The notes beneath the pieces were generated by a model. The model worked only from the letters and a program-made list of their open reading frames with translations. It did no database searches and was not told the origin of the DNA. Position numbers and translations under genes: made by a program. From Anaerolineae bacterium (lineage in GTDB: Bacteria; Chloroflexota; Anaerolineae; S140-20): a stretch of DNA of 50,791 nucleotides. Shown one piece after another: positions 3-47,745 of this stretch; position 1 is the first letter of the stretch, and the number at the start of each line of letters is the position of its first letter. The stretch spans positions 1 to 50,791 of the forward strand of contig JALUTT010000050.1 of assembly GCA_027021705.1 (NCBI GenBank), given 5' to 3'.

Positions 3-2177
3 CTCGACCTCGCCCGCGACCTCGACCTCGACCGCGCCCGCGCCCACGACCTCGCCCTCGCCCGCGCCCTCGACCTCGCTCCCGACCTCGACCGCGCCCG
101 CGCCCGCGCCCTCGACCGCGCCCGCGACCTCGACCTCGACCTCGCCCGTGTCCGTGAGCTCCTCGGCGAGCTCCGGCAGGCTCGGGAACGGGCGGCGAGG
201 GAGGCGGCCCCGGCGGGGGTGCAGCAGGCCCTGGCCGAGGCGATGGCGAAAGCCCGCCTCTTGGAAACAATTTTGTTGGAGAAGGGGCTGTGGCGGTTCT
301 GGAGCGCCCTGGGCGAGGCCCTGGACGCCGCCCCCTCGCCGGAGGGGTGGGCCGAACAGCCCCGCCCCCGCCTCACCTTGGAGCGGCTGGAAGGCCTGGC
401 CGCCCCCCAGACCTCGGAGGTCCGGGCCGACCTGTTGCCCCGCCTGGACCCCGCGCCGTTGGTGGAACTGGAGGGGGCAGAACAAGAGCGGGCCCTCGGC
501 CTCCTCACCGCCTGGGTGCAGGGGGATGCTCCCCTCTTGGCCCGTCACGGCGCGTTGCTGCTGGCCGAGATGGGCCACCTCACCCCGGCGACGATCCCCC
601 TCCTCCGCGCCTGCCTGGCCGACCCCACCGACCTGACCCGCTACCGGGCCCGGCTGGCCCTGGACCGGGGGCGGCCCGCCTCCGCCCTGGGCCGGGCGAC
701 CGTCGAGCAGATGGCCCGCTGCTACCGCTGCCCCGCCGACGACGCTGCCCGCGCCCGTTGCCCCATCCCCTGCCCCCTCACCGGCCCGGAAGGGCCGGCG
801 TCGTGGCACGACCCCACCGCCGCCGATACCTACTTGGACTGGTCTCTCAAGGAGGTCCTCCACGACCGGCCCGACTGGCTCCGGGCCTGGGCCGAGGCGG
901 GGGAGACGGCCATCCTGGGCCGCGTCTACCGCCTGGACGAAGCGGCCTGGCCCACCTTCCTGGAGCTCCTGGCCTCCGCTGCCCCGCCGGTGCAGGAGCA
1001 CCTGCTGGCCTCCGCCTCCTGGTTACTGCGCCTGGGCCGTGTCCCCCAAGAACACCACGAGGCGCTGAGGGAGAGGGTGTTGGCCCTGCTGGAAAGCGAG
1101 CACGAGAGTGTCCGCGCAGCGGCGGTCAACGCCCTGGGCCACCTGCGGGAATCCGCTGCCGCCGTGGTGGAGCGGCTGCTCCCCCTTCTCCCCCCGCGCG
1201 CGGGGGGAGAAGGGGGCCGGGGGGATGAGGGGGGTCTCCCCACCGCCCTGGCCCGGCTGGCGGCGCGGATGGCGGCGGACGATCCCCGGTCGGCCCGCGT
1301 CGAGGCGGCGCTGCGGCCCGATGAGGGGGCGCCCCCGGCCCATCCCGCCGCCTGGGTGCGCCTCCGGGTGGCCCGCGCCGGGGAGGAGTTCGATCCCCCG
1401 GCCTTCCTCCTCCGCCTGACCGAGGCGATCCCCGCGCCGGAAGCGCTGCTGGAGGCCCTCCTGGAGGTGGGGACGGACGATGACCTGTGGGACGACTACC
1501 ACGAGTGGATCGTGGCCCTGGTCCGCGCCCTGGTGGAGCGGAACGGCGACCTGCTGGACCCCCTGCTGGCGGCGCTGGAGGCGGCGCTGGCGGGCGGCGA
1601 TTGGCCCGCCAAGCGGATCCGGTTGGCCGCCGTCGCCGCCTGCGCCGGGGCGATGCCCGACGCCCTCAACCTGGCCCGTTCCCCCGACGAACTGGAGGAA
1701 CTGTTGGTGGCGGGAGCCCGGGAGGCGGATAGCCACACGGCCCGACGCCAGGCCATCACCGCCCTGAGCCACCTGCGGGTGGCCACGCCGGCCGCCGTCG
1801 AGGCGCTGCTGGCGGCCGGCCGGGACGTCGCCCTGGTGCAGCGGGACGCCGTCGCCGCCGCAGGGCGCTTCCGCCACCTGGCGCGGGAGGCCTTCGCGCG
1901 AGAGGAGGCTCTGGAGGCCCTGGCCGTGGCCCTCACCGGCGAGAGCGCGGCGACGGCCTACGTCGCCGCCCGGCTCCTGGCCGCCCTCGGCGCCTCCCCC
2001 GCCGCCCTGGAGGTGCCCGGCCTGCGGGAGCGGATCGCCCGCCACCTGAGCGAGGCCCTCCACCACCCCGACGCCGGGCGGGAGGTCTACCTGTTCGAGG
2101 AAGGCGATATTGAGTCCAAAGGCCCCCTCTCGCAGACGCTCTTCGAGGCGCTGGTGGAGGTGTGGGGGTTGCCGTAG
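3..2177 (+). CDS. 5'-truncated large helical/HEAT-repeat-like protein with low-complexity L/D/A/R repeats (possibly the C-terminal part of a NACHT-type protein)
   Basis: The frame of ORF 219..2177 is open back to base 3 (LDLARDLDLDRARAHDLALARALD...). HEAT-like segments include ESVRAAAVNALGHL and ARRQAITALSHL. The start lies outside the window. Confidence 0.7.
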   Translation, partial: LDLARDLDLDRARAHDLALARALDLAPDLDRARARALDRARDLDLDLARVRELLGELRQARERAAREAAPAGVQQALAEAMAKARLLETILLEKGLWRFWSALGEALDAAPSPEGWAEQPRPRLTLERLEGLAAPQTSEVRADLLPRLDPAPLVELEGAEQERALGLLTAWVQGDAPLLARHGALLLAEMGHLTPATIPLLRACLADPTDLTRYRARLALDRGRPASALGRATVEQMARCYRCPADDAARARCPIPCPLTGPEGPASWHDPTAADTYLDWSLKEVLHDRPDWLRAWAEAGETAILGRVYRLDEAAWPTFLELLASAAPPVQEHLLASASWLLRLGRVPQEHHEALRERVLALLESEHESVRAAAVNALGHLRESAAAVVERLLPLLPPRAGGEGGRGDEGGLPTALARLAARMAADDPRSARVEAALRPDEGAPPAHPAAWVRLRVARAGEEFDPPAFLLRLTEAIPAPEALLEALLEVGTDDDLWDDYHEWIVALVRALVERNGDLLDPLLAALEAALAGGDWPAKRIRLAAVAACAGAMPDALNLARSPDELEELLVAGAREADSHTARRQAITALSHLRVATPAAVEALLAAGRDVALVQRDAVAAAGRFRHLAREAFAREEALEALAVALTGESAATAYVAARLLAALGASPAALEVPGLRERIARHLSEALHHPDAGREVYLFEEGDIESKGPLSQTLFEALVEVWGLP
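1181..1216. repeat. Perfect 36-bp palindrome (REP-like) inside the first CDS
   Basis: cccccttctcccccc-gcgcgc-ggggggagaaggggg, followed by ccggggggatgaggg. Confidence 0.8.
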
Positions 2178-2182
2178 CTGAA

Positions 2183-2276
2183 CCCTCCCGCAGGCCCGGC
2201 GGGCGTCGGCGGCGGGCGCAAGGAGGGAGATAGGGCGATGAAGGGGAAGGCCAACGGCGAGGGGCCTGCGGGAGGG
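2183..2276. repeat. Solo inverted doublet CCCTCCCGCAGG...CCTGCGGGAGGG (94 bp) between convergent genes
   Basis: Arms at 2183-2194 and 2265-2276 are identical to those in the tandem array and the MITEs. Confidence 0.8.
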
Positions 2277-2325
2277 GGGTGGGGCGGAAGAACGCACCGG
2301 CCTGGAGAGCCGGTGCGGGAGGGTC

Positions 2326-4713
2326 TCACCGGAGGATCCAAAGGCGGAGGCGGAGCGCCCGCCAGGCAGCCCACGCTTCCTCGCGCCGGAGCGTGCCGGG
2401 CGCCGGACCGGCGTAGCGCACGCGGACGTAGAGCTCCGTCAGCCGCCGGAGGGCGGCCGTGGCCTCGGCCGCCTGCTCTTGCCACCAGGCCCGGCGCCAC
2501 CGCCGGCGGGCTGCCCCCTGCTGGAGCCGATGGGCCAGGCGGGCGGCGTATTCGGCCGGCGTCATCCCCGCCTGGGGGGGCACCCCCAGCCGCGCCCCCT
2601 GTCGCTGGAGCTGACCGTAGAGGCGGACGACCAGGTCCGGGGCGGGGAGGGCCAGGAGCCGCCGTTGACGCCGCCGCCACCAGAGCCCACCCAGCCCCCC
2701 CAGCGCCAGCAGCCCGCCCAGCCAGAGCCCATAGCGAAGCGGGGAGGCGGCCGCCCTCGGACGGGGGCGGGGGGGCAGGGGCAGGTCCGGCATCCCCTCC
2801 TCCTCCCGCTCCGGCGGGGTCGTGTCGGCTGCCGGCTCGCCCGATGGGCGCTCCAGCGGGGGGCGGCCGGCCGTGGGCTCGAAGATGACCCAGCCCAGGC
2901 CGGGGAAGTAGACCTCGGGCCAGGAGTGGGCCTCCGCCTCGGTCACCAGCCACCGGCCGGTCTCCGGGTCGTAGCGGCCCGGCGCGTACCCCACCCCCAG
3001 ACGGGCCGGCAGCCCCACCGCCCGGGCCATCACCACGAAGGCGGTGGCGTAGTAGTCGCAGTAGCCGGCCTCCGCCTCGAAGAGGAAGTAGTCGGCCACA
3101 TCCCGGCCCGGCGGGGGCGGCGGGATGTCGAGGGAGTAGGGGTAGGTGCGCAGGAACCGCTCCAGCCGCCGGGCCCGGTCGTAGGGGGTCGTCGCCCCCT
3201 CCACCACCTGCCGGGCCAGGGCAACGACCCGGTCGGGGAGGCCCTTTGGCAACTGCCGGTAGCGCTCCAGCCCCTCCTCGGGCGCGGCGGGGGCCCGCCG
3301 CAGCGCGGCCACCGTGACCGTCGGAACCCACGAGGTGACGGTGTACTGCGTCGTCGGCTCCAAGGCCCACATCTGGGCCGGGTCCTGGGAGGTGTAGCGC
3401 CGAAGCCGCACGGGCCGGTCCACCCGGATCGGCCGGGGGGCGGCGTAGAGGAGGTCGGTGGGCGGACCCAGCCGGGTCACCCGCTGGACCAGGAGCGGCG
3501 GACGGGCGGAGGGCGGGGTGGGCAGCAGGGGCTCGTCGGCCGCCAGCACCACCTCGTCGGCGGCCGTCTGCTCCCAGCCCAATCCCGTGTAGCGGTCGTA
3601 GACGGTGCCCCGCCAGTAGTGGGGGGTTGGGTCGTCGGTCTGCACCTCCATCACCCGCCGGCGGCTCAGCTCCGGCCCGCTGCCCAGCAGGTGGATGCGG
3701 GGCAGGACGCCGGCCCCGCTGACCGGTCGGCCCGGCCCCTGACCGGCGCCGGTCCCGGCTCTACCTCCGCCGCTCACGCCGGCGAAAGCCCGGTCCAGTG
3801 TCTCCCCCAGGCGGCGCACCGGGCCGGCGGCCACGTCCTGGGCCCAGCGCCCCACGGTGGGCGAGGTCAGCAGGGCGACCAGGACGGCGACCACCAGCGA
3901 GGCCCCCGCGACGGCGGCGGCGTTGATCCCCACCTCAAAGCCGATCTCCGTGGAGTAGTCCACCCCCCGCCGCGCCCAGTCCTCCTCCTGGCGGACCGTC
4001 GTCCCCCGGGCCAGGAGGAGGGGGAAGAGGGCCAGGTAGAGGAGGAGGTAGAGGAGCCCCTTCTCCCCCGCCAGGTAGGTGTGGAGCGTCAGGGCCAGGC
4101 CGATGGGGAAGAGGGTGGCGAAGTCCTGGCCCCAGGGGGGAGCCGGCCCGTCGCCGCCGGGAGAGGTGATCCGGCGCTCCTCCCGCCCGGTGTAGAAGAA
4201 GGCCCGGGCGGTGTAGGCGGCGAGGGTCCAGGTGAGCAGCGAGAGCCAGAAGATGAAGACCTGGTTGTCTCGGCTCTGCCCGCCGGCCAGGATGACGGTC
4301 TCGAACCAGGCGACCAGCCGCTGCCCGAAGAAGAGGGAGCGGAGCAGGAGGTCGGTGAGTAGTTCGGTGGGGGGGAGGCGACCCTGAAGGGCCTCGCCCA
4401 GGGCGGCCCAGCCGGGGAGGAGCTGCCCGCCGCTGTTGGCGCTCACGCCGATCCCCAGGGGGAGGAGCAGCGGCCAGGCCCGGCGGCTCCGCCAGCCGGC
4501 CCGCCCCACCCAGCGCCCCACCAGGAAGGCGAGCAGGGCGGTGGGGAGCAGGCCGCCGTCGCCCCGGCGCACCCAGTGGGCCTCGACAACGGCGGCGGGG
4601 AAGCAGAGGACCAGGGCGATCAGCAGCCCGAAGGTGGCCCATCCTTCGGCGGGCTGCCACCGGCGGAGCAAGCGCCAGAGCGGGCTTTCGGGAGGTTGGG
4701 GAGGGTAGACCAT
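2326..4713 (-). CDS. Membrane transglutaminase-like protein (TgpA/DUF3488 + transglutaminase + DUF4129-like)
   Basis: Multiple TM helices; motifs YWRGTVYDRYTG, GYCDYYATAFVVMARAVGLPARLGVGY and AHSWPEVYFPGLGWVIFEPT. Confidence 0.9.
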   Translation of the reverse strand: MVYPPQPPESPLWRLLRRWQPAEGWATFGLLIALVLCFPAAVVEAHWVRRGDGGLLPTALLAFLVGRWVGRAGWRSRRAWPLLLPLGIGVSANSGGQLLPGWAALGEALQGRLPPTELLTDLLLRSLFFGQRLVAWFETVILAGGQSRDNQVFIFWLSLLTWTLAAYTARAFFYTGREERRITSPGGDGPAPPWGQDFATLFPIGLALTLHTYLAGEKGLLYLLLYLALFPLLLARGTTVRQEEDWARRGVDYSTEIGFEVGINAAAVAGASLVVAVLVALLTSPTVGRWAQDVAAGPVRRLGETLDRAFAGVSGGGRAGTGAGQGPGRPVSGAGVLPRIHLLGSGPELSRRRVMEVQTDDPTPHYWRGTVYDRYTGLGWEQTAADEVVLAADEPLLPTPPSARPPLLVQRVTRLGPPTDLLYAAPRPIRVDRPVRLRRYTSQDPAQMWALEPTTQYTVTSWVPTVTVAALRRAPAAPEEGLERYRQLPKGLPDRVVALARQVVEGATTPYDRARRLERFLRTYPYSLDIPPPPPGRDVADYFLFEAEAGYCDYYATAFVVMARAVGLPARLGVGYAPGRYDPETGRWLVTEAEAHSWPEVYFPGLGWVIFEPTAGRPPLERPSGEPAADTTPPEREEEGMPDLPLPPRPRPRAAASPLRYGLWLGGLLALGGLGGLWWRRRQRRLLALPAPDLVVRLYGQLQRQGARLGVPPQAGMTPAEYAARLAHRLQQGAARRRWRRAWWQEQAAEATAALRRLTELYVRVRYAGPAPGTLRREEAWAAWRALRLRLWILR

Positions 4714-4742: not shown

Positions 4743-4890
4743 ATGAGGCACCGAGGGATGAGGCGCTGGGAACTGCCGACCGCCGACCGCCGACGGCCGA
4801 CCGCCGACCGCGGACTGAGGACTGAGGACTACGGACGGCGGACCGCCGACCGCGGACTGAGGACTACGGACCGAGGACTGCGGACTGCGC
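4743..4890 (-). repeat. Composite short tandem repeats (CCGCCGA, GGACTGA, GGATGAGG units) in an intergenic space
   Basis: Runs such as ccgaccgccgaccgccga and ggactgaggactgaggac. Confidence 0.85.
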
Positions 4891-4899
4891 ACCACGTGA

Positions 4900-6252
4900 C
4901 TACTCCCCCACCATCGCCGGCCGGCGCAGTGTGATCACCCGGCCCGTGCCCAGCACCTTGAAGGCCCATCGCCGCCGGGGGCCAAGCACGGGGCGCGGTT
5001 CGGCCAAATCCCCCCGGCGGATGACCTGACTGACGATCCCCTGGTCGGCCAGGAGGCCCCGCAGGGGCTCCGCCTCCCCATCCCCGCCGAAGGAGGCCGG
5101 GTCCAGCAGCCAGGCCGCTGCCCCCATCCCGCGCCGCCTCAGGCGGGCCAGGGGGAGGAGCCAATCCCCTCCCACGTCGGGCGTGACGATGAGGGCGGTC
5201 ATCCCGCTCGGTCGCCCCCGCCCCACCTCGTCCAGCAGGGCGGCGAGGGGGACGGGGGAGAGGTCGAGGGGGGCCAGGGCGGCCAGGATGGCCCAGAGGT
5301 GGCCCCGCCCCCGGGCCGGCCGGACCACCCGGCGGTGGGGGCCGTAGGTCCAGAGCCCCACGGCCCGCCCCTGGTCCAGCAGGTGGGCGGCCAGGGAGGC
5401 GACCAGGATGATGGCGTATTCAGCCGTCGCCTCTTCGTCGTGGCCGGCCTGCACCGCCCGGTGGAGGTCCAGCAGGAGCCAGACGTCGCCCGTCGTCTCC
5501 TGGTCGAACTCCCGCACCAGCAGGTCGCCCCGGTGGGCGGTCTGGGGCCAGTGGATGTGGCGCATCGGGTCGCCGGGGGTGTAGGGGCGGACGGAGCGGG
5601 CGTTGACCGTCGGCTCCCAGGCCCGGCGGCTGGTGTGGGCCTGACCGACCGTCCCACCTCGGGGCAGGACGACGGGGGGGAGGGAGGTGATGGGCGGGTA
5701 GACGAGGAGGGTGAGGGCCTGGTCATAGACCTGACGGACGGTGAAGAGGCCGAAGGGGTCTCCCGTCCAGAGCTCCCAGGGGCCCAGGGTGAACTCACCC
5801 CGCCGGCGGCAGACCCCCTCGCTGCGCCAGCGGGTGACCACCCCGGCGTCGGCGGCGCGGGCCGAGCTGATGGTGTAGCCGGGCAGCGTGGAGAAATCCC
5901 GCACCTCGACCCAGAGGGCGGGGAAGGAGGTGGTGTTGACCAGGGCCAGCCGTTCTTCCAGCGCGTCCCCCACCTGGACCCAGGTGGAGCGGAGGTGGCG
6001 CTCCATCCAGAGCCCCCGGCTCAGGGCCAGGCTCCAGCGGTAGGCGAGGAGAAGCAGCAGGGCGAGGGTGACCAGCACCACCAGCCAGACGCGGGAGGGG
6101 AGCAGGCCCATCAGCAGGACCAGCCCTCCCAGCGCGAGGGGGGGGAGGCGTCGGTTGAGGAAGAGGGTGACCCGGCGGCGGGGGCTGCCGGGGGAGGCGT
6201 CGTGCACCTCCTGCCGGAGCACCCAAGGGCCGGACCAGCGTGGAATGGGCAT
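4900..6252 (-). CDS. DUF58 domain protein
   Basis: Motifs RRGEFTLGP, DPFGLF, VRPYTPGDPMRHIHW and LLVREFD; AGGAGA RBS before the ATG. Confidence 0.9.
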   Translation of the reverse strand: MPIPRWSGPWVLRQEVHDASPGSPRRRVTLFLNRRLPPLALGGLVLLMGLLPSRVWLVVLVTLALLLLLAYRWSLALSRGLWMERHLRSTWVQVGDALEERLALVNTTSFPALWVEVRDFSTLPGYTISSARAADAGVVTRWRSEGVCRRRGEFTLGPWELWTGDPFGLFTVRQVYDQALTLLVYPPITSLPPVVLPRGGTVGQAHTSRRAWEPTVNARSVRPYTPGDPMRHIHWPQTAHRGDLLVREFDQETTGDVWLLLDLHRAVQAGHDEEATAEYAIILVASLAAHLLDQGRAVGLWTYGPHRRVVRPARGRGHLWAILAALAPLDLSPVPLAALLDEVGRGRPSGMTALIVTPDVGGDWLLPLARLRRRGMGAAAWLLDPASFGGDGEAEPLRGLLADQGIVSQVIRRGDLAEPRPVLGPRRRWAFKVLGTGRVITLRRPAMVGE

Positions 6253-6339: not shown

Positions 6340-6368
6340 ATTCTAGCACAGTTCCCCTTATGCGTCAC
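6340..6368 (-). promoter_or_regulatory. Putative sigma70 promoter for the DUF58-transglutaminase operon
   Basis: GTGACG-17bp-TAGAAT with extended TG; the -35 lies in the first partial array unit. Confidence 0.4.
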
Positions 6369-7952
6369 CCTCCCGCCGGGCACAAGGTGCCCGGCGATGG
6401 CAACGGCTTCCCGGCTAACCCCCTCCCGCCGGGCACAAGGTGCTCGGTGATGGCAACGGCTTACCGGCATCGGCCTACGACGCGCTTTAGGCCGTGGGAA
6501 GGACCTGCGGGAGGGTTCCCCCTAATCCCCCTCCCGCAGGTCCCAAGGTGCCCGGCGACGGCAGCGGTCTACCGGCATCGGCCTACGACGCGCTTTGGGC
6601 CGTGGGAAGGACCTGCGGGAGGGTTCCCCCCCTGCATCCCCCTCCCGCAGGTCCCAAGGTGCCCGACGATAGCAACGGCTTATCGGCAGCGGCCTACAAC
6701 GCACTTTAGGCCGTGGGAAGGACCTGCGGGAGGGTTCCCCCTGCATCCCCCTCCCGCAGGTCCCAAGGTGCTCGGCGATGGCAACGGCTTATCGGCAGCG
6801 GCCTACGACGCGCTTGAGGCCGTGGGAAGGACCTGCGGGAGGGTTCCCCCTGCATCCCCCTCCCGCAGGTCCCAAGGTACTCGGCAATGGCAACGGTTTA
6901 TCGGCAGCGGCCTACAACGCGCTTTAGGCCGTGGGAAGGACCTGCGGGAGGGTTCCCCCCCGGTGATGGCAACGACTTCCCGGCATCGGCCTACGACGCG
7001 CTTGAGGCCGTGGGAAGGACCTGCGGGAGGGTTCCCCCTCTGCATCACCCTCCCGCCGGGCACCTTGTGCCCGGCGATGACGACGGCTTCCCGGCAGCGA
7101 CCTACGACACGCTTGAGGCCGTGGGAAGGACCTGCGGGAGGGTTCCCCCTAGTCACCCTCCCGCAGGTCCCAAGGTGCCCGGTGATGGCAACGGCTCACC
7201 GGCAGCGACCCACAATGCGCTTTAGGCCGTGGGAAGGACTTGCGGGAGGGTTCCCCCTGCATCACCCTCCCGCCGGGCACAAGGTGCCCGGCGATGGCAG
7301 CGGCTTCCCGGCAGCGACCCACAACGCGCTTTAGGCCGTGGATAGGACCTGCGGGAGGGTTCCCTCCGCGATGGCAACGGCTTCCCGGCAGCGGCCTACA
7401 ACGCGCTTTAGGCCGTGGGAGGGACCTGCGGGAGGGTTCCCCCTGCATCCCCCTCCCGCAGGTCCCAAGGTGCCCGCCGATGGCAACAGCTTCCCGGCAG
7501 CGGCCTACGACGCGCTTGAGGCCGTGGGAAGGACCTGCGGGAGGGTTCCCCCTGATCACTGACCCTCCCGCAGGTCCCAAGGTACTCGGCAATGGCAACG
7601 GTTTATCGGCGGCGGCCTACAACGCGCTTTAGGCCGTGGGCAGGACCTGCGGGAGGGTTCCCCCCGCGATGGCAACGGCTTATCGGCAGCGGCCTACGAC
7701 GCGCTTGAGGCCGTGGGAAGGACCTGCGGGAGGGTTCCCCCTGCATCACCCTCCCGCCGGGCACAAGGTGCCCGGCGATGGCAGCGGCTTCCCGGCAGCG
7801 ACCCACAACGCGCTTTAGGCCGTGGATAGGACCTGCGGGAGGGTTCCCCCTGCATCCCCCTCCCGCAGGTCCCAAGGTGCCCGGCGATGGCAACGGCTTA
7901 TCGGCAGCGGCCTACGACGCGCTTGAGGCCGTGGGAAGGACCTGCGGGAGGG
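6363..7952. repeat. Tandem array of 15 palindromic units (about 109 bp full, 77-79 bp short) plus a partial first unit
   Basis: Right arm (g)acctgcgggaggg ends near 6515, 6623, 6734, 6843, 6952, 7031, 7142, 7250, 7359, 7436, 7545, 7657, 7734, 7843 and 7952; no unique spacers. Confidence 0.95.
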
Positions 7953-7968: not shown

Positions 7969-7997
7969 TTGACATTTTCGGCCATCTCCTGCAAAAT
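7969..7997 (+). promoter_or_regulatory. sigma70-type promoter of the glycosyltransferase
   Basis: TTGACA-17bp-CAAAAT immediately after the array. Confidence 0.6.
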
Positions 7998-8085: not shown

Positions 8086-9432
8086 ATGCGAGTGGCGCTG
8101 GTTTCACTGCAGTACCGGGAGACGACGACGGGCGGCGGCGGCGTCCACGTGGGCAAGGTGGCGGAGAACCTGGTCGCCCTGGGGCACAGGGTGACGGTTC
8201 TGTCCATCCACACCACGGGAACGCTGGCGGCGGCCGGCACCCTACAGGACGGGGACCATCCCTTCAGCGTGGAGGAGCGGGAGGGGGTGACCTTGGTCCG
8301 CTTCCTGATCGAGGAGGGGATCCAAGGGCCTTACGAGGGGACCAAGCACGAAGAGCTGGAGCGGATCCACCAGTTCTGCCGGGTGGTGCGGGACTGGCTG
8401 GTCCGGCGGCAAGGGGATTTCGACGTGGTGCACCTGCACGGCCACCACCTGATCCCCGGCTGGCTGGCCCGGGAGCTTCAGCCCTACCCCTTCGTCGTCG
8501 TCTCCACCGTCCACTACCTGGAGTCCACGCTGGTCCGGGCGACGCGGGAGGGGCTGATCCACTACCACATCTCCAACGCCGACCTGGTGCGGATGAAGCA
8601 GTGGGAGGCGATGTCCCGCTACGCCGACGGCCTGGTGCTGATCAGCCCGGGGATGGTGCAGGACTTCATCGAGCTGTTGCTGGAGCTGCGTTTGGACCCG
8701 GCGACGGTGATGCCCCCCTACCGGATCATCTCCAGCGGCATTGACGGTGACAGCATCCTGCCGGCCGAGGCGGTCCAGGCCCGTCTTGCCTCCCCGCCGG
8801 ACCGGGTCGAGGTGGTGACCTTCGCCCGGCTGGACCCCAGCAAGGGGATCGAGTACGCCATCCGGGCGGCGGCGGTGGCTGCCCAGGAGACGAGTCGCCC
8901 CTTCCGCCTGACGGTGGCCGGCATCCCCCTGCCGGAGTACATGCCCATCCTGGAGGCCGAGGCGGCGAAGGCCCGCGCCCACGTGCCGGTGGAGCTCATC
9001 GCTTTTCAGCGCATCTTCTCCCCCCAGGAGCGGGATCAGTTCCTGGCCCGCTTTCAGCTCTACCTCTTCCCCTCCCTGCGCGAGCCCTTCGGCATCACCA
9101 TCGTCGAGGCGGGGGCCCGGGGGCTGATGGTGGTCAGCACCGATGCGGTGGGACCCCGCTACATCCTGGGCGAGGACGGGGGGAAGACGACCGACTGGGG
9201 GATCATCGCCCCTCGGGGGGTGATGGGCAAGCGGACCCAGGACCCCGGGGCGCATCTGGCCCACAACCTGGGGAGGGCCCTGGCCTACGCCCTGGAGGAC
9301 TGGGAGGGAGGGCTTCGCCGGGCGATGGCGCTGCGGGACCACGTAGAGGCTACCTACACCTGGCGCAAGGTGACCGAAGCCTACCTGGACCTCTACCGGC
9401 AGGGGAAGCGGACCGTCCACGAGCCCCTGTGA
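8086..9432 (+). CDS. Glycosyltransferase family 4 (GT-B)
   Basis: MRVALVS...GGGGVHV, FDVVHLHG, FARLDPSKG, FPSLREPFGITIVEAGARG; RBS GGAGAGG before the ATG at 8086. Confidence 0.9.
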   Translation: MRVALVSLQYRETTTGGGGVHVGKVAENLVALGHRVTVLSIHTTGTLAAAGTLQDGDHPFSVEEREGVTLVRFLIEEGIQGPYEGTKHEELERIHQFCRVVRDWLVRRQGDFDVVHLHGHHLIPGWLARELQPYPFVVVSTVHYLESTLVRATREGLIHYHISNADLVRMKQWEAMSRYADGLVLISPGMVQDFIELLLELRLDPATVMPPYRIISSGIDGDSILPAEAVQARLASPPDRVEVVTFARLDPSKGIEYAIRAAAVAAQETSRPFRLTVAGIPLPEYMPILEAEAAKARAHVPVELIAFQRIFSPQERDQFLARFQLYLFPSLREPFGITIVEAGARGLMVVSTDAVGPRYILGEDGGKTTDWGIIAPRGVMGKRTQDPGAHLAHNLGRALAYALEDWEGGLRRAMALRDHVEATYTWRKVTEAYLDLYRQGKRTVHEPL

Positions 9433-9499: not shown

Positions 9500-9621
9500 G
9501 TAACTGTTCACCCTCCCGCAGGTTAGGCGCGTTTCCGACGCGAAACCGTGCTTCAAACAGCCCATCGGGGCCGAAAGCGCCCTCGACCGGTGACCTGCGG
9601 GAGGGTAGGCTGAATAGATAC
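9500..9621 (+). mobile_element. MITE copy 1 (IS66-like ends, 8-bp TSD)
   Basis: Ends GTAACTGTTCA...TGAATAGATAC, flanked by the direct repeat GGGCAAGG (9492-9499 and 9622-9629). Confidence 0.85.
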
Positions 9622-10305: not shown

Positions 10306-10410
10306 CCTCCCTCCTCATCCCCTCATTCCCTTGGTGCCTCATCCCTTCATTCCCTCATCCCCTCATCCCTCCACAGACTGAGGACCGAGGACTACGGACC
10401 GCGGACCGAC
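10306..10410. repeat. Short tandem repeats (CCTCATCC octamers, GGACYGA heptamers) between convergent genes
   Basis: cctcatcccctcattccc...; gactgaggaccgaggactacggaccgcggaccga. Confidence 0.8.
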
Positions 10411-12108: not shown

Positions 12109-12119
12109 CGTGCCTCCTG

Positions 12120-12213
12120 ACGACCGACCGCCGGCAGCGGACCGCCGGCAGTGGACCGCCGACCACCGACAGCGGACCGCCGATCACGGACTGAGGACTG
12201 AGGACCGAGGACT
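12120..12213 (-). repeat. Composite heptamer repeats (CCGCCGA, GGACTGA) in an intergenic space
   Basis: Same units as 4743-4890; a shorter run also lies at about 11470-11502. Confidence 0.8.
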
Positions 12214-21118: not shown

Positions 21119-21233
21119 TTCAGCCTACCCTCCCGCAGGTCACCGGTCGAGGGCGCTTTCAACCCCGATGGGCTATTTGAAGCACGGTTTCGCGTTGGAA
21201 ACGCACCTAACCTGCGGGAGGGTGAAGAGTTAT
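21119..21233 (-). mobile_element. MITE copy 2 (degenerate ends, no clear TSD)
   Basis: Reverse complement of copy 1 with a near-identical 95-bp core. Confidence 0.8.
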
Positions 21234-21324: not shown

Positions 21325-21402
21325 CGGGGCGTGGCGCAGCTCGGTCAGCGCGCACGGTTCGGGTCCGTGAGGTCGGCGGTTCAAATCCGCCCGCCCCGAC
21401 CA
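21325..21402 (+). tRNA. tRNA-Pro (anticodon CGG)
   Basis: CGGGGCG/CGCCCCG acceptor stem, CACGG-TTCGGGT-CCGTG anticodon arm, GGTTCAAATCC T-arm, encoded CCA. Confidence 0.97.
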
Positions 21403-23671: not shown

Positions 23672-23790
23672 GTACCGTTCACCCTCCCGCAGGTTAGGCG
23701 CGTTTCCGACGCGAAACCGTGCTTCAAATAGCCCAGGGACTGAAGGTGCCCTCGACCGGTGACCTGCGAGAGGGTAGGCTGAATAGATAC
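23672..23790 (+). mobile_element. MITE copy 3 (8-bp TSD)
   Basis: GTACCGTTCA...TGAATAGATAC flanked by CGTTCCGC (23664-23671 and 23791-23798). Confidence 0.85.
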
Positions 23791-24069: not shown

Positions 24070-24177
24070 GTAGCTGTTCACCCTCCCGCAGGTTAGGCGC
24101 GTTTTCGACGCGAAACCGTGTCGGGGATGAGAGCGCCCTCGACCGGTGACCTGCGGGAGGGTGGGCTGAATAGATAC
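24070..24177 (+). mobile_element. MITE copy 4 (internal deletion of about 14 bp; TSD 7/8 match)
   Basis: GTAGCTGTTCA...TGAATAGATAC flanked by AAGCCTTC and AAGCTTTC. Confidence 0.85.
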
Positions 24178-25452: not shown

Positions 25453-26598
25453 ATGGCGGCGAATCAGCGTTACGTCCATATCGTGGGCTGGGGGATGGAA
25501 GTTCCTGAGCGCCGGTTGACCAACGCCGACCTGGAGCGGATGGTGGAGACGTCGGACGAGTGGATCACGACGCGGACGGGGATCAAGGAGCGGCGCATCG
25601 CCAGGGAGGGGGAGACGACGGCGACCTTGGCCCTGGGCGCGGCTCGCAAGGCCCTCCAGAAGGCGGGGGTCTCCCCGGCCGACCTGGACCTGATTATCGT
25701 CGCCTCGGCGACACCGGAACACGCTTTCCCGGCCACCGCCTGCCTGGTGCAGGATGCCCTGGGGGCCGACCGAGCCGGGGCCTTCGACCTGAGCGCCGCC
25801 TGCTCCGGCTTCCTCTACGGCCTCTGCCTGGCCAGCCAGGCTATCCGCACCGGGGCCATCGAGACGGCGCTGGTCATCGGCTCGGAGACCCTCTCGCGCA
25901 TTGTGGATTGGAAGGACCGCAACACCTGTGTCCTCTTCGGCGATGGCGCGGGGGCGGTGGTGCTGACCGCCCGTCCGGAGCCCGGCGGCGTCCTCGCCTG
26001 TACAATGCGGGCCGATGGTTCCGGCGGCCCCCTTCTGGAGTTACCGGCCGGGGGAAGCCGCTATCCCACCAGCCTGGAGACGCTGGCTCACAACATGCAC
26101 ACCATCAAGATGAAGGGGCGGGAGATCTTCCGCTTCGCCGTGCGGGTGATGGCCGACGCCGCCCGCCACGTCGTCGAGGAGGCCGGGCTGACGATGGACG
26201 AGGTGGCCCTGCTGATCCCCCATCAGGCCAACCGGCGGATCATCGAGGCGGCGGCGAACCGGTTGAAGCTTCCTATGGAGCGGGTTTACCTGAACCTGGA
26301 CCGGTATGGGAACACCAGCAGCGCGTCCATCCCCATCGCGCTGACGGAGGCGGTGGAAGAAGGACGGCTGCGGCCTGGCGATCACGTGGTGATGGTGGCC
26401 TTCGGGGCGGGCCTGACCTGGGCGGGTGTCCTGGTTCAGTGGGCCGAGCTGCTGCCCGTGGCACCGCCCACACCTCGCCGCCGGCTGCGGGAGCGCACCC
26501 AGAGCCTGGTCGCCCGCATCCGCTCCTCCTGGCGCCGAACCCGTCGCTACGTCTGGGGGCTCGTCCGCCGTCTGCGGGGCGAGCCGCCGCTCTCGTAG
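25453..26598 (+). CDS. fabH: Beta-ketoacyl-ACP synthase III
   Basis: WITTRTGIKERR, AACSGF, LFGDGAGA, PHQANRRII, GNTSSASIP, FGAGLTW. Confidence 0.95.
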   Translation: MAANQRYVHIVGWGMEVPERRLTNADLERMVETSDEWITTRTGIKERRIAREGETTATLALGAARKALQKAGVSPADLDLIIVASATPEHAFPATACLVQDALGADRAGAFDLSAACSGFLYGLCLASQAIRTGAIETALVIGSETLSRIVDWKDRNTCVLFGDGAGAVVLTARPEPGGVLACTMRADGSGGPLLELPAGGSRYPTSLETLAHNMHTIKMKGREIFRFAVRVMADAARHVVEEAGLTMDEVALLIPHQANRRIIEAAANRLKLPMERVYLNLDRYGNTSSASIPIALTEAVEEGRLRPGDHVVMVAFGAGLTWAGVLVQWAELLPVAPPTPRRRLRERTQSLVARIRSSWRRTRRYVWGLVRRLRGEPPLS

Positions 26599-26973
26599 CC
26601 GGCGCCGGGGCCGGTGCGGTGATGGGGGGGATGGGACACAGATGCCCACGGATGCGACGGATGAACGCGGATTCTGTGGGAATATCTGTGCAAGCCTGTC
26701 GGGTCTGGGTTCATCTCTCGTGGTCAGCGCCGGGGCCGGTGTGGTGATGGGGGTGGATGGGACACAGATGCCCACGGATGCGACGGATGAACGCGGATTC
26801 TGTGGGAATATCTGTGCAAGCCCGTTGGGTCTGGGTTCATCTCTCGTGGTCAGCGCCGGGGCCGGTGCGGTGATGGGGGGGATGGGACACAGATGCCCAC
26901 GGGTGCGACGGATGAACGCGGATTCTGTGGGAATATCTGTGCAAGCCCGTCGGGTCTGGGTTCATCTGTGTCC
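26591..26973. repeat. Three tandem units of about 125-126 bp downstream of fabH
   Basis: gcgccggggccggtg recurs at 26602, 26727 and 26853; the last unit closes an inverted repeat ggacacagatg/catctgtgtcc. Confidence 0.9.
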
Positions 26974-37100: not shown

Positions 37101-40100
37101 TTGGGGGGAAGAGACCTTCCTAAGGGGCTGGAGAGGCTGGTGCTGGCAGGGCTGGTGCTCGCCTTGTTGGCACCGGTTCTGGTCCGGCCCAATGGCTATC
37201 TCTACATCCCCCAAGCTCCCTACTCAGACCTGACGGTCACCCACTGGCCCAACGCGCTCTTCTTGCGGCGAGCGCTGGTTGAGGCCGGTCAGCTCCCCTT
37301 CTGGCGGCCCACGGTGATGGGGGGGACGCCCTTCCTGGCCAATCCGGTGAGCGGGCTTTTCTACCCGCCTCTGTGGCTGCCGGTGTTGCTTCCCCCCGCC
37401 CTGGGCTTCAACCTGCTGGCCCTGGGCCACCTGCTTCTGGCTGGTCTGGCCGCTTACGCGCTCCTGCGCCGGGGGTGGCGCCTGGGGCGGATGGGGGCGC
37501 TGGTGGGGGGGCTCGTCTACGGGGCCTCCCCCAAGCTGCTGGCCCATCTGGGCGCCGGTCACGTCGGCTGGGTCGGGGCCTGGGCCTGGGCTCCCCTCGT
37601 CCTGTTGGCCGTCATCCGGGCTGCGGCCTCGCACCGCCGGACGGCGGCGGTGCGGGCGGGAGCGCTGCTGGGCCTCGTCTTCCTGGCCGATCTTCGCCTC
37701 ACCGTCTACCTGACCATCGCTGCCCTGACCCTATGGGTCGCTGAGGCGGTGAGGCGGCGGGCCGACGGCTCCTCGCGCCGGTGGGCCCACGGCCTGGGGA
37801 TTGCCCTTTTCCTCCTCACGGCGGCCCTCCTCACGGCGGTCCAGTGGCTCCCGCTTCTGGCCGTCCTGGGGGAGACGACCCGCAGCGGGCTGACGCCAGC
37901 CGAAGCAGCCCGTTTCTCCCTTCCTCCGGCTCGTCTCCTCGGCCTCCTGGTGGCCGGCTCCGGGGGAAACCACGAGTGGGTCATCTACCTGGGGCTCCCC
38001 ACGCTTCCTTTGGCCGCTCTGGGGCTCTGGGCAGGCCGCCGGCGGGGCGAGAAAGCCCGCTGGGATTGGGCAGTGGGGATGGCCGCGGTCGGGGGACTCC
38101 TCGCCCTGGGCAGCTACACCCCTCTCTTCCCCCTGCTGCTCCGGTTGGTGCCGGGCTTTTCCCTGCTGCGGGTGCCGGCCCGGGGGTGGTTCCTCGTCGT
38201 CCTGGGCGTGGCCCTGCTGGCGGGTTGGGGAGCCGATGCTCTGGCCTCGGGCGAGGCGGCCCGGCTTCCCCGACGAATCCGCTCCGGGCTCAACCTGGCG
38301 ATGGTTGGCTTCGGCGGCCTGACCCTCTTCCTGGCGGTGGGAGCCGGGTTGGTGAGCGGAGCGCTTCCGACCAACCTGTTGGCCCTCGCCTTCCTGGGAC
38401 CGCTGACGGCTGGCTTGCTGATAGTCGCTTGGCGACCGGAGACCCGTTTCCCCGCCACACCCCTCCTGATTCTCCTCCTGGTCGTTGACCTCTGGATCAT
38501 GGGCCACCGCCTCGTCGAGGTCCGTTCGGAGGCTCAGGTCTTCGCCGCTGGTGCGCAGGCGGCCGACTGGCTGGCCGCCCAGCCCGGCCCCTTCCGCGTC
38601 TACTCCCCCAGCTACAGCCTGCCCCAGCACGTGGTCGTCCGGGCTGGCCTTTCGCTGGCCGATGGGGTAGACCCCTTCCAGTTGACCCGCTACGTCCGCC
38701 TGATGGAGCGGGCCGGCGGGTACGGTCCCTCTGGCTACAGCGTCACCATCCCCCCCTTTCCCGAAGGGACCGAGGTGACGACAGCTCACCGAGAGACGGT
38801 ACCCGACGCCCGGCTGCTGGGTGTGCTCAACGTCCGCTACCTGGCTGCTGCCTTTCCCATCCGAGGGGAGGGGCTGCGGGCGGTCGGCCCGCCGTTGGAT
38901 GGTGTCTACCTCTACGAGAACGTGTGGGCGCTCCCCCGGGCCTTCGTCGTCGGGCGGGTGACGTCGGTGGACTCCCTAGAGGAGGCGCTGGCCTGGCTGG
39001 ACGATCACGATCCAGCTCGGGAAGCGGTTGTGGAGGGCGGACCGGCACGGGAAGGGCCGCCGGGAGTGCGGGCGGCCACACTCTTGCGCTTCACCCCCAA
39101 CCGGGTCGTCGTCGAGGCCGTCGGCCCCGGCCTCCTGGTCCTGGCCGATCCCTGGTCGGCCGGCTGGCGAGCGACGGTAGGTGGCGAGCCGGTTCCTGTC
39201 TACCCCACCGATGCGGCCTTGCGGGGGGTCTACCTGCCGCCTGGTTCACATCGGGTGGTCTTCACCTACAGGCCCCCCGGCCTCTTCCCCGGCTTGGCGC
39301 TTTCCCTCCTGGCCCTTCTTTTGGTCGCGTGGTCAGGTGGTCGGGTGGTCGGGTGGTCGGGTGGTCACGTGGTCGCTTGGTCAGGTGGTCGTTTGGTCGC
39401 TTGGTCCTTGTTCCTTGCCCCTTGCCCCTTGCCCCTTGCCTCTCGGTCCTCAGTCCTCAGTCCGTGGTCGGCGGTCGGTGGTCGGCGGTCGGCCACCCCC
39501 TCGGTGCCTCATCCCTCAGTGCCTCATCCCTCCGCGTCTCCCCCCCCAGCGCCCCATCCCTCCGAACAACGCTGGCTTGCCCTCTGGATCATTGTGGCCC
39601 TGCTCCTTACCAGCCTCCCTTACCTGCTGGGCTGGGCCCTTAGCGGGCCGGATATGGTCTTCGACGGCTTCGTCTTCAACATCGAGGATATGCACGCCTA
39701 CCTCTCCCGAATGGGGCAGGGGGCACGGGGGGCTTGGCTTGTCCGGATCGCCTACACGCCGGAGCCCCATCAGGGGGTGCTTCTCTTCCTGTTCTACGTG
39801 CTCCTGGGGAAGGTGGCTGCCGGGACAGGGCTTTCCTTGGTTGCGGTCTTTCACCTGGCCCGGCTGATCTGCGGGGCGTTGATGCTGGGAGTGACCTATC
39901 GTTTCCTGGCCGCGCTGACCGGGTCCATCGCGGTGCGTCGTCTGGCGTTTTTGCTGATCACCTTCGGCGGAGGGCTGGGCTGGCTGCTGATCCTGGCGGG
40001 GCGGGGGGAGTGGCTGGGCAGCCTGCCCCTAGACATGCTGCTGCCAGAGGGGTTTGCTTTCCTCACCCTCTACGCGCTACCTCACCTGGCGATGGCGCGG

Positions 40101-47627: not shown

Positions 47628-47745
47628 GTATCTATTCAGCCTACCCTCCCGCAGGTCACCGGTCGAGGGCGCTTTCAGCCCCGATGGGCTCTTTGAAGCA
47701 CGGTTTCGCGTCGGAAACGCGCCTAACCTGCGGGAGGGTGGACAC
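47628..47745 (-). mobile_element. MITE copy 5 (8-bp TSD)
   Basis: Reverse-complement copy flanked by TCGGAGCG (47620-47627 and 47746-47753). Confidence 0.85.

Follow-up and report, generated by a model that had tools for sequence, protein, structure and literature searches.

Extragenic palindromes of the REP/BIME type in enterobacteria, and the REPINs that accompany RAYT in Pseudomonas, form mosaics between genes and are abundant in one lineage; within BIMEs, the REPs alternate in orientation. The Correia elements of Neisseria are hairpin-forming MITEs of ~100–150 bp that occur in hundreds of copies, duplicate TA, and have ends that can donate promoter boxes. To our knowledge, they have no known partner element and do not form long tandem arrays. 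BrickBuilt of Porphyromonas gingivalis is reported to be a MITE containing a minisatellite, with a 23-nt unit inside a leader/tail frame (PMC4596501). ISDge4 of Deinococcus geothermalis, a member of the ISBst12 group, is reported to transpose actively and to have terminal inverted repeats GTGACTACTCAGCA / GTAACTGCTCAGCA as well as an 8-bp direct repeat (PMC12898284). IS66, Chloroflexi, and tandem forms did not come up in a term search of a 2024 review of prokaryotic MITEs, and a literature search by motif strings returned no relevant paper.

Here, we describe an array of hairpin units in a window of 50,791 nucleotides from contig JALUTT010000050.1 of an Anaerolineae bacterium (GCA_027021705.1). 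The repeat family behind it resembles Correia elements in size, the formation of hairpins, the hundreds of copies, and the possible donation of promoter boxes by its ends, but not in the TA duplication, the lack of a known partner, or the lack of long tandem arrays. With BrickBuilt, the family shares the character of a small, strictly intergenic, non-coding mobile element that is present in many copies, lies near promoters, and contains an internal tandem repeat. The BrickBuilt repeats, however, are 23 nt long, whereas here an entire 95-nt hairpin core with its linker is the unit; arrays of up to 25 units (2.2 kb) and perfect 15-bp palindromes are further differences from BrickBuilt (PMC4596501).

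Anatomy of the array and its promoters

The array (6363..7952, + strand) lies between a leftward gene for a DUF58-domain protein of 450 aa (4900..6252, − strand) and a rightward gene for a family-4 glycosyltransferase (8086..9432, + strand; 448 aa from the ATG at 8086, which is preceded by a GGAG-rich stretch). Cutting the array at each right arm yields 15 head-to-tail units as assembled, all in the same orientation and with a period of ~109 bp. Tandem Repeats Finder places it at 6368–7952 with a period of 109 (best score 1707) and reports higher-order periods of 186, 217, 298, and 407. Each unit consists of the 95-nt core of a MITE, referred to here as family 1, closed by CCCTCCCGCAGGTCC / GGACCTGCGGGAGGG, plus a ~14-nt linker, TTCCCCCTGCATC. 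The core is a long hairpin with a closing palindrome of 13–15 bp, CCCTCCCGCAGGT(CC) / (GG)ACCTGCGGGAGGG.

The left arm CCCTCCCGCAGGTCC is carried by units 2–5, 8, 11, 12, and 15; it pairs perfectly over at least 15 nt with the GGACCTGCGGGAGGG located 65 nt downstream in seven of these eight units, and with one mismatch in unit 8. Units 1, 7, 9, and 14 have the variant left arm CCCTCCCGCCGGGCA; in units 9 and 14 the variant arm, CCCTCCCGCCGGGCAC, can fold on itself as CCGGGCAC-AAG-GTGCCCGG. Unit 1 (6363–6515, + strand) is a composite of a 53-nt left half and one full unit. The left-half copy (6363..6415, + strand) comprises the variant left arm and the first interior hairpin, matches positions 1–54 of the unit query, and appears as a 53-nt period with 1.9 copies at 6368–6468 in Tandem Repeats Finder. 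Units 6 (6953..7031, 79 nt), 10 (7360..7436, 77 nt), and 13 (7658..7734, 77 nt), all on the + strand, are truncated and lack the left arm. The truncation type of unit 6 (query positions 29–109) recurs in arrays on contigs C71, C133, and C162.

Apart from units 9 (7251..7359) and 14 (7735..7843; both + strand), which are 100% identical, unit-to-unit identity is ~62–99%, with units 4 and 15 at 99%. The pairs 5/12, 6/13, and 7/14 are 94%, 91%, and 87% identical, which supports a block duplication, and the array matches itself at 6663–7250 versus 7366–7952 with 91% identity over 593 nt. The 65-nt stretches between the palindrome arms are versions of one sequence, leaving no unique spacers, and the period is not divisible by 3. 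In its organization, with units tens of bases long standing head to tail and blocks of higher order, the array has the form of a minisatellite or VNTR.

A promoter-like site is found at each edge of the array, two in total against 0.1 expected from shuffles. The leftward site, for the DUF58 gene (6340..6368, − strand), consists of GTGACG, a 17-nt spacer, and TAGAAT, with TG before the −10 hexamer. Its GTGACG (6368–6363, minus strand) overlaps the first bases of the array, and, judging from this overlap, the −35 hexamer may be supplied by the repeat end. The rightward site, for the glycosyltransferase gene (7969..7997, + strand), consists of TTGACA, 17 nt, and CAAAAT (10/12), with TTGACA at 7969–7974, 16 bp beyond the last unit. 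Both sites face away from the array and none is found inside it.

The anatomical details of the preliminary description were all borne out on re-examination: the 15 units of ~109 bp, the perfect 15-bp outer stem of full units (with the mismatch in unit 8), the armless units 6, 10, and 13, the identity of units 9 and 14, the block relating units 5-6-7 to 12-13-14, the absence of unique spacers and of a consistent reading frame, and the extent of the array from the leftward −35 to 16 bp before TTGACA. Its reading of the locus as a satellite structure is also right.

It is highly improbable that the array was created or enlarged by a short-read assembler out of reads from dispersed copies. The contigs of four public runs do leave room for such an artefact, as none spans the array and they stop at its edges (those of the best run end at 6394 and resume at 7941); word depth in the array, whose words are shared genome-wide, reaches ~40 times that of the flanks; and the identical units 9 and 14 also fit. 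However, junctions between repeat and unique sequence are present in independent runs, on the left in X1 and X2 and on the right in X1–X4 (three studies), nine other arrays with private linkers lie on other contigs, and the units, except for 9 and 14, differ enough for paired reads to order them. From these three observations we conclude that repeat DNA at the site is real, the number and order of units being given as assembled only. The flanking glycosyltransferase, used as a metagenome query, returned only the contig of the window itself, and its ortholog is absent in three genomes of the same family, so that these provide no empty site for comparison.

Relatives of the unit in the genome and across Anaerolineae

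The preliminary description treated the array as a one-off device tied to its two promoters, which does not hold, since the genome contains at least 10 arrays and ~100 single copies. A search for similar arrays, which that description had proposed, gave 196 blastn matches and 230 nhmmer hits to the family 1 unit (180 near full length). They correspond to 117 loci: 93 single copies, 14 double copies, and 10 arrays of 4–25 units, the largest spanning 2.2 kb. The stem 12-mer CCCTCCCGCAGG is the commonest 12-mer of the genome, with 674 copies versus 4.6 expected from base composition. A true CRISPR repeat (~245 copies), judged from 12-mer counts only, is present elsewhere in the genome.

Most family 1 loci (94/117) lie outside gene calls, rough ones from a filter on ORFs and GC3 (3357 calls covering 79% of the genome), and some arrays overlap such calls. 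In gaps between genes of the same direction, 30 loci are oriented with the genes and 34 against them, indicating no strand bias. The arrays occur in divergent, tandem, and convergent gene contexts, three of the ten between divergent genes, and the units within every large array point in one direction. Linkers are private to arrays: TTCCCCCTGCATC on the contig of the window (C50), TTCCCCCTCTTCA on C71 and C133, TTCGGCGGGGGGAGCCA on C96, and TTGGCTTACTCTTCCTGTGTCA on C68, the last of which resembles the right flank plus the left flank of its own locus. Arrays at different loci are only ~80–91% identical to each other.

Among 63 family 1 single copies, 13 are flanked by exact direct repeats of at least 8 nt, compared with a mean of 3.2 (range 0–6) in shuffled-partner controls, and the other 50 have no such exact duplication. 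These direct repeats enclose outer inverted repeats of type A or B, whose duplications are 9 bp long. Type A or B repeats are present in 30 of 77 single copies, and 43 of the 77 have none of the three outer end types scanned; an ISBst12-type end was found in one copy only (C27, 55682), on the right side only.

A sister family, family 2, has the same stems and the same 95-nt core length but an unrelated interior. It is present in ~180–205 genomic copies, nearly all single, including 56 complete elements of 120–129 bp. Its outer inverted repeats begin with GTAACTG (ends GTAACTGTTCA / TAGGCTGAATAGATAC), and in the copies listed, clean 8–9-bp direct repeats lie directly outside the ends. Within the window, single copies are located at 9501..9613 (+ strand, with outer ends GTAACTGTTCA / TAGGCTGAATAGATAC), 21120..21232 (− strand, ~90 bp from a tRNA gene at 21325–21399), 23679..23782 (+ strand, flanked by the 8-bp direct repeat CGTTCCGC), 24071..24169 (+ strand, diverged, 78% identical to the reference copy), and 47636..47740 (− strand).

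When relatives were searched, BLAST of the whole unit gave no match in any of 40 genomes, a misleading result because only the ends are common across genomes. The palindrome pair with a 60–76-nt gap was found in 29 of 401 genomes of the class Anaerolineae (25 of 216 genera) in a patchy distribution, with no occurrence of a reversed control pattern anywhere. In at least 25 Anaerolineae genera the palindrome is identical to the letter, whereas the enclosed 65 nt vary freely. The MITEs that contain it differ in their outer ends, of which there are at least three or four unrelated kinds, GTAACTGCTCAG; CTAGCTACCTGACC / CACTACCCGACA; CAGGGCTTTTCAACGCTC; and GGGTGCATTTCAAATGAGTTG. At public MAG loci, a GTAACTGCTCA-like end is present on at least one side of 48 of 90 cores and on both sides of 25, and 14 of these 25 have perfect 8-bp duplications and another 5 have duplications with one mismatch. 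GTAACTG(C/T)TCA... stands at both ends in family 2 and in the public copies. Head-to-tail core junctions number 52 in this genome and 4, 2, and 1 in three others, with none in 25 of the 29 core-bearing genomes; tandem core arrays are thus almost confined to this Anaerolineae genome.

Among the outer repeats, the most frequent, GTAACTGCTCAG..., also terminates single-gene insertion sequences of the IS66 family (ISBst12 group) in other Anaerolineae. Five such elements of ~1.5–1.6 kb (L124, L125, L126, L128, and L135) carry GTAACTGCTCAGG at both ends, exactly in L126 and L135 and as close variants in the others, and agree exactly or nearly with the first 12 nt of the MITE ends. Each contains one open frame of ~470–510 aa, DUF6444, zf-IS66, and DDE_Tnp_IS66 domains were detected in the three elements scanned, and three of the five are flanked by perfect 8-bp duplications. 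Family 2 and the public copies thus share the terminal repeat GTAACTGCTCAG... with the ISBst12 group, as modeled on ISDge4, and their duplications of 8–9 bp compare with the 8 bp of that element (PMC12898284); the single-gene DDE transposase with its three domains likewise fits an ISBst12-group partner. The array unit differs from ISBst12-group MITEs in consisting of the internal core only, without ends.

In this genome, a Pfam search and tblastn with three such transposases found no assembled autonomous ISBst12-like element, the sole PF03050 match being a fragment on a 1.4-kb contig without MITE ends. Pairs of palindrome arms 0.3–6 kb apart enclosed only ordinary genes, solo arms were mostly chance one-mismatch matches in genes or decayed copies, and unpaired outer ends belonged to MITEs with one mutated end. 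Across the class, IS66-family transposase genes are present in 14 of 29 core-positive and 93 of 372 core-negative genomes (odds ratio 2.8, p 0.015, the genomes being interrelated), a moderate co-occurrence only. The autonomous elements lack the core palindrome; therefore, the MITEs are not plain deletion derivatives of them.

With a core of 95 nt and whole elements of ~120–150 bp, these repeats are dispersed and lack coding capacity. Family members have terminal inverted repeats and target-site duplications, the array units keeping the inner palindrome only, and autonomous elements with the same ends exist in other Anaerolineae genomes, as expected for MITEs.

Structured RNA, REP-like, and DNA-binding readings

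The hairpins might suggest an RNA device, that is, an array transcribed and cut into structured RNAs of ~95–110 nt or serving as the structured leader of a flanking gene. The unit folds as RNA at −53.8 kcal/mol (z −3.5) and −55.2 kcal/mol (z −2.4) on the two strands, yet nothing else speaks for such a device, and the edge promoters would read into the array only if they were reversed: both point outward, none lies within, and the copies show no strand bias relative to genes. Over 65 single and 83 array copies, 85% of the stem cells are paired, and double-sided stem changes number 19 and 22, compared with 19–34 and 19–49 when partners are slid by 1–3 columns; the covariation check that had been proposed therefore reveals no excess of compensatory changes, and interior-stem variants mostly break pairs. 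(RNAalifold on the 148 copies gave a mis-registered consensus of near-zero energy, and the fold of the consensus sequence was used instead.) Rfam contains nothing at the gathering score, the best sub-threshold match reaching 23 bits against a cut-off of 80, and an E-value search returned only BjrC80 and mir-492, far below threshold. Thus, the compensatory changes, strand-specific placement, and curated-model match of a structured non-coding RNA family are all missing, and an RNA device is extremely unlikely. By the same tests of orientation, stem changes, and Rfam, neither the processed RNAs nor the multivalent protein landing pad envisaged in the preliminary description finds support. A CRISPR array was rejected, as its 'spacers' are conserved versions of one sequence; on the grounds of these 'spacers', of duplications and inverted ends being present, and of the missing strand bias, integron attC-like sites, IS200/IS605 ends, and Y RNA could be discarded as well.

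It is also very unlikely that the hairpins are REPs or REPINs moved as single-stranded DNA by a RAYT (Y1 HUH) transposase and gathered into a BIME-like cluster, even though the units are palindromic, extragenic, and clustered, forming mosaics between genes that are highly abundant in one lineage. Tandem repeat arrays, one of them likewise with a 109-bp period, adjoin both of the genome's Y1_Tnp (PF01797) genes, which are RAYT-like in size; but these repeats differ in sequence from the array unit, and only chance near-matches to the CCTGCGGGAGGG-type motif lie within 3 kb of either gene. Moreover, family members have terminal inverted repeats of the DDE type and 8–9-bp duplications, which HUH transposition does not make, and the units of large arrays stand head to tail in one direction, unlike the alternating REPs of BIMEs. 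The term BIME-like is apt for the appearance of the locus, a mosaic of palindromic intergenic units, and fails for its nature. Somewhat less remote, though still improbable, is an exapted DNA device, in which the palindromes would either offer multivalent binding to a nucleoid or regulatory protein or, as cruciforms, absorb the negative supercoils that the divergent promoters generate. Such a device would be consistent with the exact fit of the array between two promoter-like sites, the placement of 3 of 10 arrays between divergent genes, the perfect 15-bp stems of array units, longer than the 13 bp of most single copies, and the folding of three units as DNA at −94.2 kcal/mol (z = −5.7). The other arrays, however, are in tandem or convergent gaps or overlap gene calls, the array contains many broken units, and the other 28 core-bearing genomes have hardly any arrays. 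The conservation of the stem sequence, beyond pairing, across 25 genera and in MITEs with several end types would also fit a DNA device, but recent spread can also account for it. A further reading, which we regard as unlikely, treats the palindromic clamp CCCTCCCGCAGGT / ACCTGCGGGAGGG (13–15 bp) as a functional module that is portable, as opposed to mere filler. Its hairpin might promote transposition by uniting the two ends, or a conserved host protein might bind to it. A simple 'junk' reading does not explain stems that are conserved across genera and yet missing from the autonomous elements.

A MITE core probably amplified in place

Taken together, the data point to a MITE core that was probably amplified locally into a minisatellite with no dedicated function. 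We regard the array as most likely selfish or neutral repeats, as opposed to a dedicated RNA or protein-binding device. The terminal inverted repeats and 8–9-bp duplications of its family 1 and family 2 relatives are typical of DDE transposition, and we infer the same origin for the array, whose own ends show no outer repeat and no recognizable target-site duplication. Signs of growth in place are the linkers private to each array, the identical units 9 and 14, and the duplicated 593-nt block. We propose that a single copy landed between the DUF58 and glycosyltransferase genes and that a short tandem duplication then arose, taking in a few flanking bases. Driven by the perfect palindromes, replication slippage or template switching, together with unequal recombination, would have expanded the array, duplicated blocks of it, and deleted internal parts. 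As by-products, the two divergent promoters would have been pushed 1.6 kb apart, the leftward promoter may have received its −35 box from the array, and many sites able to form cruciforms or hairpins would be on offer.

The ISBst12-group MITE superfamily with its patchy distribution over the class Anaerolineae looks undescribed, as do the presence of one internal palindrome in MITEs with different ends and the growth of MITE cores, within one lineage, into arrays as long as 2.2 kb. These findings give no pointer to a new cellular mechanism. If the clamp is indeed a functional module, the arrays would be multivalent platforms with real effects on neighboring promoters. For annotation, a single explanation covers the two related MITE families (~400 copies), the 10 arrays, and the most frequent 12-mer of the genome, and other 'hairpin arrays' of this genome should be read likewise. 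Such arrays break short-read assemblies, and they could serve as strain markers.

Anatomy of the array and its flanks

A head-to-tail array occupies positions 6363–7952 of the window, for which Tandem Repeats Finder reports a period of 109 (best score 1707) and higher-order periods of 186, 217, 298 and 407. When cut at every right arm, the array as assembled comprises 15 units, a typical unit consisting of a 95-nt palindromic hairpin core, bounded by a left and a right arm, and a linker. In seven units CCCTCCCGCAGGTCC pairs perfectly with GGACCTGCGGGAGGG over at least 15 nt, with the arms 65 nt apart, and in one more the same arms pair with a single mismatch. Four units carry the variant left arm CCCTCCCGCCGGGCA, units 6, 10 and 13 are without a left arm, and unit 1 is a left half fused to a complete unit. 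Units 9 and 14 have the same sequence, the match between units 4 and 15 is 99%, and a 593-nt block occurs twice with a 91% match; the pairs 5/12, 6/13 and 7/14 are 94%, 91% and 87% alike. The preliminary description had reported the missing left arms, the identity of units 9 and 14 and the resemblance of units 5-6-7 to 12-13-14, and its anatomy was right in every detail that could be checked.

The array is real. Its left junction was seen in the contigs of two of four public runs (three studies) and its right junction in all four; none of these contigs crosses the whole array. No outer end or duplication belonging to the array itself is recognisable at its two edges. Two promoter-like sites point away from it, compared to 0.1 expected from shuffles: GTGACG-17-TAGAAT on the reverse strand (6368–6340), whose −35 element lies on the first bases of the array, and TTGACA-17-CAAAAT on the forward strand (7969–7997). 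The same scan found no terminator-like sites around the array. A DUF58 protein gene lies to the left (4900–6252, reverse strand) and a family-4 glycosyltransferase gene to the right (8086–9432, forward strand). An orthologous locus for empty-site comparison was not found in metagenomes searched by the glycosyltransferase or in three genomes of the same family.

Two MITE families in the genome

The preliminary description had treated the array as a single structure, but the same unit recurs at 117 loci across the draft genome to which the window belongs (G000; 5.19 Mb, 183 contigs, 66% G+C). A single unit gave 196 blastn matches; with a profile derived from 146 full copies there were 230 hits, of which 180 run to nearly full length. 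The loci of this family (family 1) comprise 93 single copies, 14 doubles and 10 arrays, so that similar arrays, for which a search had been proposed, do exist; they hold 4, 5, 6, 6, 7, 11, 11, 16, 18 and 25 units, the longest, on contig C71, spanning 2.2 kb. No 12-mer of the genome is commoner than the stem word CCCTCCCGCAGG with its complement (674 copies, compared to 4.6 predicted from base composition). In the same 12-mer table, about 245 copies of overlapping words tile one CRISPR-like repeat, reading ...GTTTCAATCCCTCGGTCGGGATTCTGTGGGGTGGGAC, a sign of putative large CRISPR arrays at other sites of the genome; about 280 copies of a distinct 14-mer, AATCCGTTGACAGC, are also present.

Relative to crude gene calls (3357 ORFs that passed a GC3 filter and cover 79% of the genome), 94 of the 117 loci are intergenic. 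By context, 64 of the 117 lie in tandem, 20 in divergent and 8 in convergent gaps, 23 overlap a call, and 2 are at contig edges. In tandem gaps, 30 are co-oriented with the genes and 34 are opposite. This placement and orientation fit mobile DNA, unlike a strand-specific RNA gene or a terminator.

Collecting arm pairs up to 230 nt apart yielded 318 pairs spaced 80–89 nt, with two unrelated interiors, both 95 nt long: family 1 (96 and 54 copies on the two strands) and a sister family with the same stems, family 2 (90 and 83). Family 2 is a textbook MITE. It numbers about 180–205 copies, nearly all single, and outside the palindrome it carries GTAACTGTTCA at the left and TAGGCTGAATAGATAC at the right, which form an inverted repeat that is imperfect, one side having 5 nt inserted. 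Clean 8–9-bp direct repeats lie directly outside these ends (for example ttatcagc, acgggctgg, ggtcacag and ccttgatg), and the 56 complete elements are 120–129 bp long. The window holds five single copies of family 2, with its ISBst12-type ends, at 9501–9613 (about 70 bp past the glycosyltransferase stop codon), 21120–21232 (some 90 bp away from the tRNA gene, 21325–21399), 23679–23782, 24071–24169 and 47636–47740.

The single copies of family 1 form a more mosaic group. Their ends were classified in 77 singles, which include three low-scoring members of family 2. A type A outer repeat (CTAGCTACCTGACCGTTGTCA ... TCCCTGGGAA..GGTCAGGTAGC) bounds 18 of them at one side or both, a type B repeat (CAGGGCTTTTCAACGCTCAAACGTTA ... 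TTCCCCCCAAGGGTTAGAGCGCTGAAAAGCCCTG) is found in 12, a single genuine family 1 copy ends at the right in the ISBst12 manner, and 43 match none of the three end types. Direct repeats that are exact and at least 8 nt long flank 13 of 63 singles, compared to a mean of 3.2 (range 0–6) when right flanks were exchanged between copies; in most cases they adjoin a type A or B end on its outer side, and several reach 9 bp (cggcgggat, cccctcact, gtgctacgg, gtgtgctgg). The type B end also bounds a separate, core-less MITE-like family that opens AGGGCTT(T/A)TCAACGCTTTAACCCTGGAGATTCCCGAGGTCTAGA, with members at C9:14410, C18:47158, C18:51058, C56:73250, C59:117015, C90:5116 and C137:14986; at least seven copies have the interior CCCTGGAGATTCCCGAGGTCTAGA, and on contig C27 a family 1 element is nested in such an element. 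The different ends and this nesting indicate that the core travels in several shells; in other genomes, further end types, CACTACCCGACA and GGGTGCATTTCAAATGAGTTG, surround the same core.

Distribution in Anaerolineae and ISBst12-type partners

An exact-pattern scan of species-representative genomes for both arms spaced 60–76 nt returned more than 100 stretches among the matches listed, nearly all from Anaerolineae or Chloroflexota MAGs; the few Sphingomonas matches listed are palindromes of different build. Across 401 genomes sampled evenly from the class, the pattern is present in 29, from 25 of 216 genera, and the reversed-pattern control in none. Its distribution is patchy, with 233 occurrences in G000, 81, 43, 35 and 21 in the next genomes and none in three genomes of its own family. 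As the gap range of the pattern fixes core length elsewhere, a constant length is shown for G000 only. Core interiors vary from genome to genome. A GTAACTGCTCA-like end lies within 24 nt of 48 of 90 public cores on at least one side and of 25 on both; in these 25, the 8-bp duplication is perfect in 14 and has one mismatch in 5. Another Anaerolineae genome has, at several loci, a pair of cores that differ in their interiors and lie 4 nt apart (linker TTCA; G114:C39:22-215, G114:C113:14255-14446 and L040:301-492), a unit that may be a dimeric MITE.

Among the loci retrieved from other Anaerolineae genomes after a Pfam search for the IS66 transposase domain, five elements of about 1.5–1.6 kb (L124, L125, L126, L128 and L135) are bounded by close variants of GTAACTGCTCAGG, exact in L126 and L135, and three have perfect 8-bp duplications (gattcccg, acggaaac, catcctag). 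Each contains one open frame of about 470–510 aa, and all three elements scanned have DUF6444, zf-IS66 and DDE_Tnp_IS66 domains. According to a 2026 report, ISDge4 of Deinococcus geothermalis, a single-gene element of the IS66 family's ISBst12 group, was seen in the act of transposing and carries GTGACTACTCAGCA / GTAACTGCTCAGCA as TIRs, with a direct repeat of 8 bp (PMC12898284). The likeness of both ends and duplication to those described there identifies the MITE ends as ISBst12-group ends. The CCCTCCCGCAGG palindrome is absent from the autonomous ISBst12-like elements examined, so the MITEs have only about 12–14 terminal bases in common with them.

No autonomous partner was found in the G000 assembly, where tblastn with three ISBst12-like transposases gave no match and the sole IS66-domain match is fragmentary, on a contig of 1.4 kb. 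All that this contig (G000:C134, 1419 bp, L119) contains is a classical IS66 transposase gene, truncated, and the tail of a reading frame upstream; its G+C seems, by eye, below that of the genome, and it may represent either a collapsed element of many copies or a stray from binning. A Pfam search found the IS66 transposase domain in 107 of the 401 genomes: 14 of the 29 with the core and 93 of the 372 that lack it (odds ratio 2.8, p 0.015, for genomes related to each other and in many cases incomplete).

Alternative readings and the origin of arrays

The array had also been considered as a source of structured RNAs. The unit folds well on either strand, at −53.8 kcal/mol (z −3.5) on one and −55.2 kcal/mol (z −2.4) on the other. 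Across 65 single copies and 83 from arrays, the pairing of the consensus structure holds in 85% of cells, compared to 40–45% with partners slid by 1–3 columns, which is expected of any palindrome. The same copies show no surplus of compensatory changes (19 and 22 double-sided changes, compared to 19–34 and 19–49 in slid controls); the outer 13 pairs are nearly invariant, and interior-stem variants mainly break pairs. At the gathering score, Rfam finds tRNA alone in the window and nothing in the array, whose best match in E-value mode scores 23 bits where the cut-off is 80. Of the proposed BIME-like or satellite character, the satellite structure stands. A tie to REP/RAYT systems is unlikely, as no copy of the palindrome lies within 3 kb of the two Y1 (RAYT-like) genes of G000. 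BIME/REP clusters and Correia elements resemble the array in looks only. Both Y1 genes are flanked by other long tandem arrays (L011, G000:C14:14609-17953, positions 1–1461; L012, G000:C49:16325-19669, positions 1897–3274), one of 13 copies of an unrelated 109-bp unit and the other of 43-nt and 46-nt units, which are probably true REP/RAYT systems.

The palindrome is kept letter for letter across genera and end classes, which a simple MITE reading fails to explain. On the strength of this conservation, the palindrome could be a portable functional module, although we consider this unlikely.

The linker between right and left arms is private to each array: TTCCCCCTGCATC in the window, TTCCCCCTCTTCA in C71 and C133, TTCCCCCTATGCATCC in C2, TTCGGCGGGGGGAGCCA in C96, TCCTCGCAGTCG in C20 and TTGGCTTACTCTTCCTGTGTCA in C68, the last closely resembling the right flank and then the left flank of its own locus. 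The type B right end still closes several arrays (C2, C22, C71). Arrays at separate loci match at only about 80–91%, with no long near-identical blocks. Private linkers, the flank-like C68 linker and the low match between arrays fit a scheme in which a resident copy and a few flanking bases would have been duplicated in tandem; expansion, block duplication and repeated internal deletions would have followed, growth being helped by the choice of a right arm between its own left arm and that of the next unit.

We found no published papers with the motif strings in a relevant context, and the terms IS66, Chloroflex, tandem and nested have no occurrence in the searchable text of a 2024 MITE review. 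The closest systems described are the ISBst12-group elements, as regards the ends and the duplication (PMC12898284), and BrickBuilt, a MITE with an internal minisatellite (PMC4596501).

The G000 lineage is also rich in other tandem repeats, to which it seems generally prone. Many short repeats with 6–8-nt units (ACCTCG, ACTGCGG, CCTCATCC, TGGTCGGG and others) occur in the window at 1–144, 4772–4889, 10313–10370, 12119–12198 and 39322–39562. A 126-bp unit is repeated three times in tandem at 26590–26967 (95% matches) and has only short partial matches of 27–53 nt elsewhere in the genome (C2, C162, C100, C47).

The array is thus quite probably an ordinary structure that arose by in-place amplification of a MITE core. 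Head-to-tail core junctions number 52 in G000, compared to 4, 2 and 1 in three other genomes and none in 25 of the 29 core-bearing genomes, which makes arraying a peculiarity of the G000 lineage.
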